Shown: positions 6,605-12,838, counted from the first letter of the stretch. The stretch is 64,000 nucleotides of DNA from a virus (IMGVR_UViG_3300045988_151230), one strand, 5' to 3'. The notes: generated by a model not told the origin, from the letters alone. Made by a program: numbers and translations.

Positions 6605-8290
6605 TCATTTAACGCGTTTGAAAACGTATACGCTGACTGTGATCCCTGTGTCTTCAAACTCGTTGGTAAACGACTTCCCTCTGGCATAAACGTAATTATC
6701 CATCGTCATCCAGTCCAGTATTGGCGCAGTGCCCGGCAATACTGCTACAAGACGCCCGCCGACTTTCAGATGCCCCAGCGCAGCCAGCGTGTGCTCTCTA
6801 TGACGACCAAGCGAGTACGGCGGGTTCATAACGATTTTGTCGAACTGATAACCTACGTTGTCCTCAGACCACTTTATGAAGTCGCAGCAAATCGTGTTCG
6901 TATACCCTTTTCCGCGCAGGATATCAGCGAAGAGAGGTGCGATTTCTATGCAGGTAACATCTTCCAGATCGGCGTTGATATAGGCCAGAAGATCCCCACG
7001 TCCGGCTTGAGGCTCCAGCAGCTTCTCACCAGACTTCAATTCAGTGGCTCTGGCAACGTACTCAGCAATCAAGCGTGGGGTAGGGTAGAACTGGTGTGAT
7101 TTTGTATCCGGTATTAATCCGGTAGCCACAATCGTATTTAGCGTATGGCCGATCTCATACGGGAACTGCCAGTGTTTTTTCTCCTGCACGCCGCCAATGA
7201 AGCTCAGTGTGCGCTCAAGCTCTTCCACCTGCGACTTCTGGAGAGCTGAATCAGAGAAGTACCATACGCCTTTGTCTTTGCTCAATCGCCCGTCACGAAG
7301 CGCAGTGCGAACCGGCACGGAGATCGTCTTCTGGATTAACCCGAACTGCTTTGGTGCCCGTGTTTTTGGTGCGGTGCGACATGGCGCGGGGATTGCAGCA
7401 GGCATACTGTAAGCCAGCACCTCATTCAACTTCCAGGCCACGTCAGGATGTATTTCAAAGTGAACGTTGCCGTTCTTGAACATCTTCACGCGCATCAGAT
7501 TTCCATCGACGTTCATCCAGTCACCGGTCTGGCAGTCGTTTGCCCGATACGCAGCTGATAGCACCTCAGCAGTGCGATTGATGGTAATAAATTCTTTGTG
7601 CGCGAAGAAATGAAGCAAGACACGCAGATCGTCGATGTAGTCCTCTTTGCGATAGTTCACGCTAACGCTGTCCCGCCAGAAATCAGAAATGCAGTCAGCG
7701 ATTATCAGCCGCTCGCTGAAACCGTTTGTCTTATTTGTCTTGTGCGCAGGACTCAGCGCCTTAAACAAGCCATACACGCGCTCAGAGAGATATTTGTGCC
7801 TGTCATTCAGCAAATTAAGCATCGTGGGTATGACCGTTTCTGCTTTGAACTCCGGTACACCAACGAACTCTTTAACCTTCATCTGGTAGCCGGTTCTGTC
7901 AGTTTTGATGACTTCCTGTTTGCCCTCTATAAACTGCTCGCGCCACTCATCTCGACGGGAAGCTGGCATGATCAGCAAAACGTTAGTCATGTCCGTGACC
8001 TTCCTCCAGTACTCGGCCCAAATATTCTGTTTCACCCATTCCAGATCGACTTTATCCAACCAACCTCGATTTAAACGCGAGCGATCTTCATCTGGTCGAT
8101 GGTTTAGTCTCAGCAGGCGATTAATCATGTTGTGGCGTTCGTCGCCATAAACGAAGTCGTGTACCTGATACATGAAGGCGATCTCTTTCTCGCACTCGGC
8201 CACGATTTCGTGGATGACATTCATTTCCTGACGATAGTCGATAGCCGTGTTTGAGCTGGCATCGTCGATGATGGAAAGGGCTGTATTCAT
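6605..8290 (-). CDS. N6-adenine DNA methyltransferase with a roughly 390-aa N-terminal domain of unknown function
   Basis: C-terminal motifs QFYPTP, LEPQAGRGDL (motif I) and VMNPPYS (motif IV). Confidence 0.65.
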   Translation of the reverse strand: MNTALSIIDDASSNTAIDYRQEMNVIHEIVAECEKEIAFMYQVHDFVYGDERHNMINRLLRLNHRPDEDRSRLNRGWLDKVDLEWVKQNIWAEYWRKVTDMTNVLLIMPASRRDEWREQFIEGKQEVIKTDRTGYQMKVKEFVGVPEFKAETVIPTMLNLLNDRHKYLSERVYGLFKALSPAHKTNKTNGFSERLIIADCISDFWRDSVSVNYRKEDYIDDLRVLLHFFAHKEFITINRTAEVLSAAYRANDCQTGDWMNVDGNLMRVKMFKNGNVHFEIHPDVAWKLNEVLAYSMPAAIPAPCRTAPKTRAPKQFGLIQKTISVPVRTALRDGRLSKDKGVWYFSDSALQKSQVEELERTLSFIGGVQEKKHWQFPYEIGHTLNTIVATGLIPDTKSHQFYPTPRLIAEYVARATELKSGEKLLEPQAGRGDLLAYINADLEDVTCIEIAPLFADILRGKGYTNTICCDFIKWSEDNVGYQFDKIVMNPPYSLGRHREHTLAALGHLKVGGRLVAVLPGTAPILDWMTMDNYVYARGKSFTNEFEDTGITVSVYVFKRVK

Positions 8291-8443
8291 AATTACACCA
8301 TTAAATAATTTGTTTTCTGATTGGTGTAATTATCGCAAACTTGAAAAGGCATAAAAGCTGCATTCATAGGCGTTACAGCAGATTTAAGGCGTAAAAATGG
8401 GGGCTGTCGCCCCCTGTCGACTGGTGATGTATTAGAGTGCGTA

Positions 8444-8998
8444 TTACGTTTTGTGCGGCTGCTTATTCAAGTCATGGCGATGCGTGAGCTCCCGCATCAT
8501 GTCTTCAAGGCGACTCTTTGTGTCGTCGAGCTGGTCGGCCATTGCACCTAAAAGCTGGCGAACGGCCATCGGATCGTCGCTGTTTAGTGATGGCATTTTA
8601 GAACCTGCTTTAGAAGACATAAGGTTGATTGCAGACATCAACATCGTTAGAGAGGATTTAAGCCCGGCAATTTCACGATCTTTGCTGGCAATAATCGTCT
8701 CACTTTTGTTACCGTCATCAGTTTCTTGAGTCTCGCTCACCATATCCAAAGTCGCTTGCAACTTATCAGCTCTCTCTTTTTCAGCAAGGTAATGAACACC
8801 GAAATGGTGTGCCAAAGCTACAATCTGAGTTGGCTCTTCAAAGGTGGAATTAAAATTAAGTATTGTAAACAGTCTCTCAAATATGGAAACGTCTTCTATT
8901 CCTCGAAGAATGGCTAACATTTTGACCAGTTCATTAGCATCCATTTCTTCGAATAAGGCGTTTTGTTCATCAGCTATTGCTTTGCATTTCTCGCACAT
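8444..8998 (-). CDS. hypothetical protein
   Basis: 184-aa ORF with the recurring leader and upstream palindrome. Confidence 0.45.
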   Translation of the reverse strand: MCEKCKAIADEQNALFEEMDANELVKMLAILRGIEDVSIFERLFTILNFNSTFEEPTQIVALAHHFGVHYLAEKERADKLQATLDMVSETQETDDGNKSETIIASKDREIAGLKSSLTMLMSAINLMSSKAGSKMPSLNSDDPMAVRQLLGAMADQLDDTKSRLEDMMRELTHRHDLNKQPHKT

Positions 8999-9014
8999 GT
9001 GTTTTCCTTAATGC

Positions 9015-9034
9015 TTAAACAAGTTGTTTTCTTA
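9015..9034. promoter_or_regulatory. recurring near-palindromic motif TTAAACAAGTTGTTTTCTTA
   Basis: 17-36 bp upstream of the start at 8998; one of at least seven similar copies. Confidence 0.45.
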
Positions 9035-10655: not shown

Positions 10656-11246
10656 CTATTTATTATAAACAAAACCAATATCTTTCTTGTGAGGCATATC
10701 TGCTGCTGAAAAAGCTGCGATCTTCGCGAGTCGATCACATATTTCATTTTCACGATGCCCGGCGTGACCTTTAACCCACTTCCAGCGAACATTATGTCGA
10801 CTTGCGGCCTCATCCAGACGCTTCCACAGATCAACATTCTTTACCGGTTTTTTGTCAGAAGTCATCCATCCATTGCGTTTCCACCATTTCATCCACTGTG
10901 TCATGCCGTTTTTCAGATACTGGCTATCAGAGTGCAAAATAACGTTGCATGGATATTTCAAACGCTCCAGCCCGATAAGTGCCCCCATCATCTCCATGCG
11001 GTTATTGGTGGTGCTATGAAAACCATCTGAGAACTCGCGTTCCTCACCACGATACTGGAGAACGATACCGTAACCGCCCGGGCCACCCGGATTTTTAAGG
11101 CAAGAGCCATCACTAAAGATTTTCACGGTTTTAAGCTGGGGATTGAACTCTACGACAGGCGTTGTGGGATTGGTGCGGGGGGAATTTTTGTTTTTGGCTT
11201 TTTTGCGAGTTTTTGCTTGCGATCGGGCTGGTGTCTTCGTCGTCAT
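10656..11246 (-). CDS. rnhA: ribonuclease HI
   Basis: [38 protein letters not shown] motifs; start taken at MTTKTP with AGGAG RBS; basic N-terminal extension. Confidence 0.85.
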
Positions 11247-11831
11247 ATAAACTCCTGAATCAAGCGCCGCGCCGATTTTTCCTCGCGCGTGCGCACACGC
11301 GTGCGTGTTAATAATTATTAAAATAAACAAATTACTTCCCAGAACAGGTTTTTATAAACCTGAACTGAACGAACGAAGTGAGTGAAGTTCACCTCGAACG
11401 AAGTGAGAGGTTGTCTTTTCAGGTAATACTCTCCCAGGGAGGTGAGTATAAAAATCTCTCACCAACCTGGTCGTTTCATAACCTGAAAAGTTATGGTCTA
11501 AGTCTACTGCCAGCTTAGACTTGGGAAGTTATGGATGACAGCACCCCAGAACCGAGATCTTCCCACACTTTATGAAGGGGAGTACTGGATTCAACCTCTC
11601 TAAACACCCCAGACTCGACAATCATAAAGTGACCCTTGTCTCTGCTCACTTTGGTTCCCCCTTCCCCGACACCTAAACGGCACCAGTTCTACGCTGGTAG
11701 TGAGCTTTTTTAAACCTGACGCCAGTGACGCTTACCCCCACCCATCAGGTCGAGTCTCCAGTCTACGACTGGAAACTATCAGATCTTAGCACTTACAATT
11801 CACTTTATGAATAGTTTGTACTTATCTATCA

Positions 11832-12059
11832 TTATGATTGATTATTTTCTCTACCATGTAGTTGAACATTCAAGGCAAACACCTCATTGATCAACTCACC
11901 TAAAAGCTGTTCAACAAGTTCGCGATGCTCGCCAAGATGCAAGCACTTAATTGCCCATTCGTACAAGTTGAAAGCCTGCTCACGATCTTTCATCATTTCA
12001 CGAGCCTGGGCCAGAAAATCGCTCTCTACGAGCGCAACGACATTAGTCGGGTATGACAT
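11832..12059 (-). CDS. hypothetical small protein
   Basis: Start placed at MSYPTNV, which carries the recurring leader CATGTTGGTTTCCTT. Confidence 0.35.
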   Translation of the reverse strand: MSYPTNVVALVESDFLAQAREMMKDREQAFNLYEWAIKCLHLGEHRELVEQLLGELINEVFALNVQLHGRENNQS

Positions 12060-12244
12060 GTTGGTTTCCTTAAAGTGGTTCATAAAATCGATTTTAAAGC
12101 GTCTGGGAAGGGGTTCTAGTGGATTCTGTAGTGATGTTCAGGTCTGGAGTCTCTGATACAAAACAGCCTTCTTCCGTATATTAATAATTAATATGTAGTT
12201 ATTTATATATACAGAAGCAGGCTAATTACAGACACCAGAACAAA

Positions 12245-12838
12245 CTAAGCAGCCTTCTTTGATGGTCTTTTTTTCCTGATCACATTCGCAGGATCATACC
12301 CTCCCAGACTTTTCATGACGTCCAAAGGGATCTTGCTTATAGAGTGCCCAGCGTCCTGACAGAATCCTCGAAAAACAACGAGCATACTGCCACCTGGGTT
12401 GATGTTTACTTCTACCTGACCCAGATTTACGTCAGGCTCGACAAACGCTACGCGGCCACCAGACAGAATAATCGTCTCATTCGCACACTCTGTTGCACGC
12501 TCATACCACTTTGTATCTAGGGATTGAGGAATTAGCATCACTGTTGTAACTCCGCGAGCCTGCTCACGTATAGCCGCATCAATCCAGGGGTAGATTTTGG
12601 AGTAGGGTGGATTGAGGAAGGCAATTGTACCTGGCTGTCCCCATTCAGATTTCAAAGCATCACGCTCAACGCCTATGAAATTAGGCAGCTTTGCATTGTC
12701 CTTGTTGCAGGCAACGTCAACATCAAATGTCACTCCAAGATAACGTTGAATGGCAGAAAACAGCCAGTCAGGTGTTCTCCAGAGGTCACGAAGAGAGTTG
12801 TCGCGCTTTCGCTGTTTGATTTTTTCGGCTGCAATCAT
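12245..12838 (-). CDS. phage-type DNA N6-adenine methyltransferase (Dam-like)
   Basis: 197-aa ORF; WRTPDWLF and FLNPPYS motifs. Confidence 0.75.
   Translation of the reverse strand: MIAAEKIKQRKRDNSLRDLWRTPDWLFSAIQRYLGVTFDVDVACNKDNAKLPNFIGVERDALKSEWGQPGTIAFLNPPYSKIYPWIDAAIREQARGVTTVMLIPQSLDTKWYERATECANETIILSGGRVAFVEPDVNLGQVEVNINPGGSMLVVFRGFCQDAGHSISKIPLDVMKSLGGYDPANVIRKKRPSKKAA

Follow-up and report, generated by a model that had tools for sequence, protein, structure and literature searches.

The 64,000-nucleotide (nt) viral stretch IMGVR_UViG_3300045988_151230 (the window, i.e. the whole sequence analysed) carries on its minus strand, between positions 6605 and 12838, one large and one small gene of the N6-adenine methyltransferase type. 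Our data suggest that both genes probably encode solitary DNA methyltransferases of an SSU5-type phage-plasmid, which would modify the DNA of the element itself, thereby combining anti-restriction self-methylation with a possible GATC marking of the replication origin. The large gene (6605..8290) encodes a protein of 561 amino acids (aa) and the small gene (12245..12838) a Dam-family protein of 197 aa, the two open reading frames (ORFs) being 3,954 bp apart.

By sequence identity, the window is part of an SSU5-type phage-plasmid of Escherichia coli, since the 6.2-kb stretch holding both genes has near-identical counterparts on E. coli plasmids (99.9 % identity to NZ_CP024264) and is 96–98 % identical to the Escherichia phages CMS-2020a, Cyrano and PhiR41_1 and 83 % identical to Salmonella phage SSU5. 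It matched 698 plasmid records, nearly all of them typed as non-mobilizable. SSU5-type phage-plasmids, a large and well-described group, are frequently met in E. coli, Klebsiella and Salmonella, and they can bear resistance genes (PMC9600943). This identity was missed by an earlier reading of the same DNA made from the sequence alone (the sequence-only reading). Both genes are conserved throughout the group, i.e. as SSU5_095 (large) and SSU5_088 (small), and already carry the RefSeq label ‘DNA methyltransferase’; therefore, the finding is much less unusual than that reading implied. Both enzymes are ordinary biology, since few accessory genes of phages and plasmids are as common as solitary methyltransferases, and what remains uncharacterised is only the N-terminal DUF4942 region of the large enzyme.

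The 561-aa gene, an orthologue of SSU5_095 and of CYRAN_90 in phage Cyrano (named ‘YdiA’ in one S. Typhi entry), is intact, its length being that of a cluster of 1,384 members at 99 % identity. Among 5,426 complete E. coli genomes, 251 have the gene, and 247 of its 256 places were on plasmids. The phage family profile phrog_6263, ‘DNA methyltransferase’, covers the protein over its full length (E 5.5e-300). The PGAP label is ‘DUF4942 domain-containing protein’, an annotation also carried by proteins that are 99–100 % identical to it, while the small protein is labelled ‘phage N-6-adenine-methyltransferase’.

As the sequence-only reading had described, the catalytic motifs of the large protein lie at the C-terminus behind about 390 residues. 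The catalytic domain (residues 395–561, 6608..7108) is a compact Rossmann fold of the gamma-type amino-methyltransferases. It begins with FYPTP (residues 401–405, 7076..7090), a motif X-like element ahead of motif I that aligns with the ‘TP’ of TaqI residues 22–24, followed by EPQAGRG (residues 426–432, 6995..7015), i.e. motif I with the S-adenosylmethionine (AdoMet)-binding loop, in which P427, A429, G430 and G432 are invariant, and by the catalytic motif IV, NPPY (residues 489–492, 6815..6826), with an invariant N489-P-P. Across an alignment of 24 homologues with identities down to 34 %, the elements QFYPTP (Q400-F-Y-P-x-P), EPxAGxG and NPPY are all invariant. The protein thus has both a class I Rossmann-fold AdoMet-dependent methyltransferase domain and the motif order X, I, IV, with (N/D)PP(Y/F) as motif IV, that defines the gamma class. 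Of the stop-to-stop frames in the window with a length of 80 aa or more, only the 561-aa and 197-aa ORFs contained the pattern [DNS]PP[YFWH]. The large protein is therefore a gamma-type amino-methyltransferase with intact catalytic motifs, for which catalysis is predicted.

DNA is the probable substrate of this enzyme. At the sequence level, the protein matched DNA methyltransferase profiles, i.e. phrog_6263, PADLOC mad2, MTase_II and, weakly, TaqI. The isolated C-terminal domain scored 18.6 bits against Pfam N6_Mtase (PF02384), just below the cut-off of 20.4 (E 0.0013), which explains the uninformative public annotation of the protein; precomputed PF02384 or PF05175 matches are present in some of its homologues. 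Residues 328–560 also matched positions 660–905 of the 1,259-position phage protein-family profile phrog_9133 (E 3e-50), and the catalytic core matched further profiles of 1,400–3,900 positions. A ranking by fold suggested another substrate, such that the protein would methylate RNA (rRNA or tRNA m6A, like METTL5, KsgA and Erm) or protein (like HemK), its N-terminal module docking on the ribosome or another host machine. We consider this quite improbable, since every sequence match with a meaningful E-value (mad2, MTase_II, PHROG, N6_Mtase and TaqI) was to a DNA methyltransferase profile and the homologues repeatedly adjoin DNA methyltransferases and anti-restriction genes. Moreover, a QFYPTP-type element before motif I is a signature of gamma-class DNA methyltransferases, such as HsdM, TaqI and Eco57I-type enzymes.

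Gamma-class enzymes usually recognise their target through a C-terminal target-recognition domain (TRD), as in M.TaqI, M.BseCI and CamA, or through a separate subunit, as in type I HsdM with HsdS. In contrast, the 561-aa chain stops about 70 residues past NPPY and therefore lacks a C-terminal recognition domain, while its additional ~390 residues are N-terminal and have no solved relative, either by sequence profile or by fold. No HsdS-like neighbour was found in profile scans of the neighbouring ORFs or in the annotation of a near-identical plasmid.

In place of the unknown function that the sequence-only reading had assigned to the N-terminal part, profile searches returned a single family, DUF4942 (PF13708), which is the only Pfam match in the protein (residues 140–295, 74 bits against a cut-off of 25) and reaches weakly back to residue 89. 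An AlphaFold model built from the 24-sequence alignment was confident (predicted local distance difference test score 82), and three N-terminal segments can be distinguished. Residues 1–88 (8027..8290) form a helical region in the AlphaFold 2 models, with residues 1–15 predicted to be disordered, and are poorly conserved (7–31 % identity in more distant homologues). The DUF4942 core (residues 89–295, 7406..8026) is the best-conserved part of the protein and contains invariant residues, including H183, D221, R223, D262, H277 and H281 as well as an invariant tryptophan. It is followed by a basic, variable linker and small alpha/beta subdomain (residues 296–394, 7109..7405, isoelectric point 9.8), which, judging from predicted secondary structure and conservation, is a candidate DNA-contacting or specificity segment. 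Among close relatives, identity amounts to 55–96 % in the DUF4942 core and 48–88 % in the catalytic domain, and residues 1–88 and 296–394 vary most.

When the N-terminal 390 aa were scanned against 1.8 billion representative proteins, 610 clusters (at 50 % identity) matched, nearly all of them proteins of 510–580 aa in which the module is placed identically at the N-terminus, which indicates a fixed two-module family. DUF4942 is thus a widespread and highly conserved module, with a pattern of conservation that would be unexpected for a typical specificity domain. Shorter DUF4942 proteins (350–430 aa) have DUF4942 alone in Pfam and may be either truncated metagenomic genes or genuine stand-alone forms. 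One homologue (P0044) is a mosaic, its DUF4942 core being 95 % identical and its catalytic domain, which resembles Klebsiella-type variants, only 48 % identical, which implies that the two modules have recombined. When four sub-segments of the large protein were compared with Pfam at lenient thresholds, the only additional matches were chance-level ones to NUDIX_2 and HTH_52 (E ~0.06–0.09). In the literature, DUF4942 was mentioned in four papers only, each time in passing, we found no study of the SSU5 or pHCM2 methyltransferases and no methylome or biochemical data on the large enzyme, and a search for a link to M.EcoGVI/ATGCAT yielded none. Likewise, motif statistics of the window gave no target for the large enzyme.

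Both methyltransferases are orphans, i.e. solitary, as far as annotated nucleases go. In agreement with the sequence-only reading, which had noted the lack of an adjacent restriction endonuclease gene, the neighbouring ORFs, when compared with Pfam, NCBIfam and PADLOC profiles, gave no match to a restriction endonuclease, another nuclease or a defence system. The annotations of phages Cyrano and SSU5 and of the ~96 kb read of the near-identical plasmid NZ_CP070135 (108 kb) likewise list no restriction enzyme. What this plasmid does have is an HNH endonuclease about 30 kb from the methyltransferase locus, which would appear to be of the homing rather than the restriction type. The ORFs upstream and downstream of four distant homologues and of the large gene in the window showed no mutual similarity, and a two-gene system with a conserved partner was therefore rejected.

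This bears on the idea that the large protein is part of a system for restriction or defence, either as a type IIG-like fusion with an N-terminal nuclease or as a modification subunit (e.g. MADS-like) with an unrecognised effector. Its best PADLOC match is indeed the MADS component mad2 (E 5e-15), the invariant His, Asp and Arg residues of the DUF4942 core could form an active site, and several ORFs near the methyltransferase genes are without annotation. However, neither a nuclease fold nor a conserved partner nor a C-terminal TRD was found, so that such a role is highly improbable. The mad2 match covers only the catalytic domain (residues 394–523), and the sole other ‘mad’ match, to mad8, is a chance-level P-loop (E 0.0047); without other mad genes, membership in a MADS system was dismissed. 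The large protein likewise does not have the architecture of type IIG/IIL fusions of the MmeI or Eco57I type, with their N-terminal nuclease and C-terminal TRD.

The genomic company of the homologues is in line with a solitary, mobile-element function. Distant homologues of the large enzyme (33–38 % identity) lie in the early or replication regions of prophages or on plasmid-like contigs, where they adjoin other solitary methyltransferases of the families PF01555, PF00145 and PF02086. A protein-level search found homologues on at least 5,000 plasmids; among the matches listed, 3,288 were conjugative. Full-length homologues with 30 % identity occur on IncHI2 plasmids, 2 kb from a Dam-family methyltransferase. 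The pairing of the present element, a Dam-family enzyme (there of the PF02086 type) and a DUF4942-methyltransferase, thus recurs within ~2 kb on IncHI2-type conjugative plasmids (L013 6351–10635, pHYEC7-IncHI2, and L007 5655–9638). The IncHI2 homologue has a degenerate motif I, EPNIGHA.

A core-only relative was found in the leading region of an IncF plasmid (L014 7914–8477, p5505-1), i.e. a stand-alone 187-aa ‘class I SAM-dependent methyltransferase’ that is 33 % identical to residues 400–517 of the large protein (E 1e-15) and has neither DUF4942 nor a recognition domain. It adjoins ssb, psiB, a ParB-family gene, an antirestriction gene and another DNA methylase. In such leading regions, orphan methyltransferases stand out among the functions encoded; they are reported there to have a protective role and are regarded as anti-restriction (PMC11541004; PMC11602122), presumably by protecting the entering DNA (Samuel et al. 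2024, PMC11541004). Unlike these conjugative plasmids, the present element is a non-conjugative phage-plasmid, and its gene lies in a long DNA-metabolism operon and not beside oriT.

Restriction pressure on the element is also suggested by its oligonucleotide composition. Relative to a maximal-order Markov expectation for the whole 64-kb window, ten 6-bp palindromes were seen 0–1 times against 7–18 expected, i.e. (observed/expected) AAGCTT 1/18, CTGCAG 1/14, GAGCTC 1/13, AGCGCT 1/13, GCATGC 0/10, GGCGCC 0/9, CTCGAG 1/10, GAATTC 1/9, GCCGGC 1/9 and CACGTG 0/7. CTAG is also low (36 observed, 96 expected). This strong avoidance of 6-bp palindromes indicates that type II restriction exerts selection on the element, and sites beyond the reach of avoidance would be covered by methylation.

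The second enzyme, which the sequence-only reading had recognised as small, Dam-like and 4 kb away, is indeed a member of the mini-Dam family. The 197-aa gene, an intact orthologue of SSU5_088 and of CYRAN_79 in Cyrano, encodes a protein scoring 131.6 bits against Pfam ‘Dam’ (PF05869, cut-off 28.1) and 113.2 bits against the NCBIfam model ‘phage N-6-adenine-methyltransferase’ (TIGR01712, cut-off 97.05). Its motif IV, NPPY (residues 76–79, 12602..12613), is invariant in comparison with the SSU5, VT2-Sakai and T1 enzymes. Homologues of the small enzyme were present in ~1,970 phage records. It aligns over the catalytic core with the nin-region methyltransferase of VT2-Sakai (orf32; 39 % identity, E 3e-31) and with ST20 of phage T1 (25 % identity, E 3e-18). 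These two correspond, judging from their records, to the mini-Dam enzymes M.EcoVT2Dam of Stx2 phages and M.EcoT1Dam, which are likewise solitary phage genes; the enzymes of both phages reportedly act on GATC. In contrast to the VT2-Sakai enzyme, the small protein has an additional basic C-terminal tail (RKKRPSKKAA).

The best predicted motif of the small enzyme, and the most likely one, is GATC, perhaps with relaxed specificity, because the reported target of M.EcoVT2Dam is GATC (PMC6602927) and a relative of M.EcoT1Dam, the 35 % identical M.Btr190III, still methylates GATC, with off-target activity (PMC4996451). Two non-specific adenine methyltransferases were considered as further relatives of the small enzyme and dropped, i.e. 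Hia5, which is Dam/DpnM-like (PMC3299994), and M.EcoGII, which is of the beta class.

A concrete candidate target for GATC methylation lies on the plus strand of the window at 29269..29481, where a P1/P7 oriR-like plasmid origin is located upstream of repB, a RepB-family initiator gene extending to 30606. The origin comprises DnaA boxes (29269–29285; TTATTCACA/ATATCCACA), six GATC sites within 59 bp (29291–29349) and about five iterons (TATGCTGTCAGCGG; 29390–29481). The block is 78–82 % identical to the P7/P1 oriR, and the corresponding GATC sites of P7 are annotated as Dam methylation sites. Situated between the DnaA boxes and the iterons, it is the densest GATC cluster in the window, with 7 GATC in 200 bp, which is above the 95th percentile (6) of the maxima of 500 random placements and below their top value of 8. 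With 273 sites observed (ratio 0.86), GATC as such is not avoided in the window.

Plasmid replication of P1 needs Dam-methylated DNA, and P1 encodes its own Dam, named Dmt, which is a large Dam/Dcm-type fusion. The present element shares the lifestyle of P1, a homologous oriR-type origin module including the GATC block and the possession of a Dam-family enzyme, whereas its iterons and Rep protein differ and its small enzyme, a PF05869 mini-Dam, belongs to another family than Dmt. An own GATC enzyme would free the origin from host Dam, and the alternative of epigenetic control, which the sequence-only reading had offered next to self-protection, thus has a concrete candidate target.

The start of the large gene is overlaid by a 12-bp inverted repeat with a 21-nt loop (AUAAUUACACCA / UGGUGUAAUUAU; 8289..8333, minus strand), which spans the Shine–Dalgarno-like GGUG and the AU of the start codon. 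The predicted RNA fold has an energy of −12.2 kcal/mol (z −3.7), a compensatory A>G/T>C pair is found in phage Cyrano and a shorter stem is kept in SSU5. The stem may act as a hairpin in translation or, alternatively, as a palindromic operator. Terminator-like hairpins precede each methyltransferase gene, that of the large gene being a GC hairpin with a T-run (8399..8414, minus strand) that separates the 561-aa gene from the 184-aa ORF upstream of it and is conserved in SSU5. The small gene additionally has, just upstream, a promoter-like site (12868..12896, minus strand; TTGCCA-17-AAAAAT with TG), identified by consensus match only. No known RNA family was found by Rfam in window positions 5000–15000.

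It may therefore be asked whether the main role of the pair is epigenetic housekeeping, such that GATC methylation would control the firing or sequestration of the P1-type origin, possibly also packaging or late transcription, and the large enzyme would mark regulatory sites. The GATC block beside the DnaA boxes and iterons, with its P7/P1 counterpart, fits this, and the apparently separate terminator and promoter contexts of the two genes, together with the conserved hairpin or operator that covers the start of the large gene, suggest that they are regulated individually. On the other hand, enterobacterial hosts supply Dam, so that an element-encoded enzyme is not required for methylation of the origin, and the GATC cluster does not exceed the highest maximum obtained by random placement. 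Furthermore, the large enzyme has homologues in replicons that are unrelated and do not have this origin, i.e. lambdoid-type prophages and IncHI2 plasmids, as well as IncF plasmids for the core domain, which argues for a generic, replicon-independent function. We consider housekeeping a less probable main role; it overlaps with self-methylation, from which it differs in emphasis only. Like the RNA or protein substrate and the restriction or defence system, it is less likely than self-methylation.

According to the self-methylation that we favour, the small mini-Dam enzyme would most likely methylate GATC, possibly with relaxed specificity. It would thereby maintain full Dam methylation of the element when its DNA replicates rapidly, be it lytically or as a plasmid, and when the Dam activity of the host is weak, and would in addition mark the cluster of six GATC sites in the P1-type origin. 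The large enzyme would methylate a second motif, with the most likely effect that incoming or newly replicated DNA of the element escapes host restriction. Since its gamma-type core has no C-terminal TRD, DNA binding and the choice of sites may reside in the N-terminal part, i.e. in the DUF4942 core and the basic variable segment 296–394. The function proposed by the sequence-only reading, self-protective methylation or epigenetic control, is the standard reading for such enzymes and fits the company of the homologues, the avoidance of palindromes and the oriR-type origin with its clustered GATC sites.

Several points weigh against this explanation. E. coli hosts already own Dam, so that a GATC enzyme looks redundant. 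The small enzyme is only 25–39 % identical to the characterised GATC enzymes, the assignment of which to orf32 and ST20 itself derives from records, and for both enzymes activity, substrate and motif are predictions. In addition, the DUF4942 core is more strongly conserved than the catalytic domain, which is unusual for a TRD, as these domains normally diverge with specificity, and DUF4942 may therefore do something other than read sequence.

It is tempting to speculate, although we consider it rather unlikely, that DUF4942 is not a conventional TRD but a new functional module, which either guides the methyltransferase to a DNA structure (e.g. entering or replicating single-stranded DNA, as for the ParB-methyltransferase M.EcoGIX) or binds and neutralises a component of host defence. 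To our knowledge, no strand-specific activity is known for DUF4942 proteins. If this were true, DUF4942 would define a widespread class of anti-defence enzymes common to phage-plasmids, prophages and IncHI2 conjugative plasmids.

A similar layout is found in the ParB-methyltransferases of the M.EcoGIX type, which are likewise orphans of mobile elements with an N-terminal accessory domain and a catalytic domain. ParB-methyltransferase fusions combine an N-terminal ParB/Srx domain with a catalytic part of the beta class (PF01555-type), unlike the gamma-type core of the large enzyme. The motif order of the large protein is gamma and not beta, and no ParB match was obtained in it, even at E-values of up to 10; it was thus not assigned to this type. 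M.EcoGIX-type enzymes are described as single-strand-specific plasmid methyltransferases and have been proposed to act on entering or replicating DNA (Fomenkov et al. 2020, as cited in PMC11541004).

Knowledge of the motifs of both enzymes would show which host restriction systems these elements evade, and thereby help to explain their host range, as well as give a function to a DUF family that is often not labelled as methyltransferase by PGAP.

Both methyltransferase genes lie inside a long minus-strand block of DNA-metabolism genes, including nrdAB and the genes for thymidylate synthase, dihydrofolate reductase, a 3′–5′ exonuclease and RNase HI. The region between them (8444–11330, minus strand) encodes a TerB-domain protein (P1 TciA-like according to the Cyrano annotation), tiny membrane-protein ORFs and RNase HI, as well as two conserved, function-unassigned proteins of 184 aa (phrog_5508) and 164 aa (phrog_10411). 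The longest ORF for RNase HI has 224 aa with a TTG start, which gives an N-terminal extension before the RNase H domain beginning at residue 68.

Of note, a type I-E CRISPR array on the chromosome of E. coli AST85 has a leader-proximal spacer (L015 1502–1533) identical to a 32-nt segment inside the 561-aa gene (7584–7615). The protospacer has an ATG protospacer-adjacent motif, which is of a functional type, at 7581–7583. Nine chromosomal places among the 5,426 genomes match, of which AST85 was the single one inspected. Elsewhere in the window, a cluster of four tRNA genes is located at 50797–51347 (minus strand; Ser-TGA, Thr-TGT, Tyr-GTA and Asn-GTT), and related elements also encode a methionyl-tRNA synthetase.

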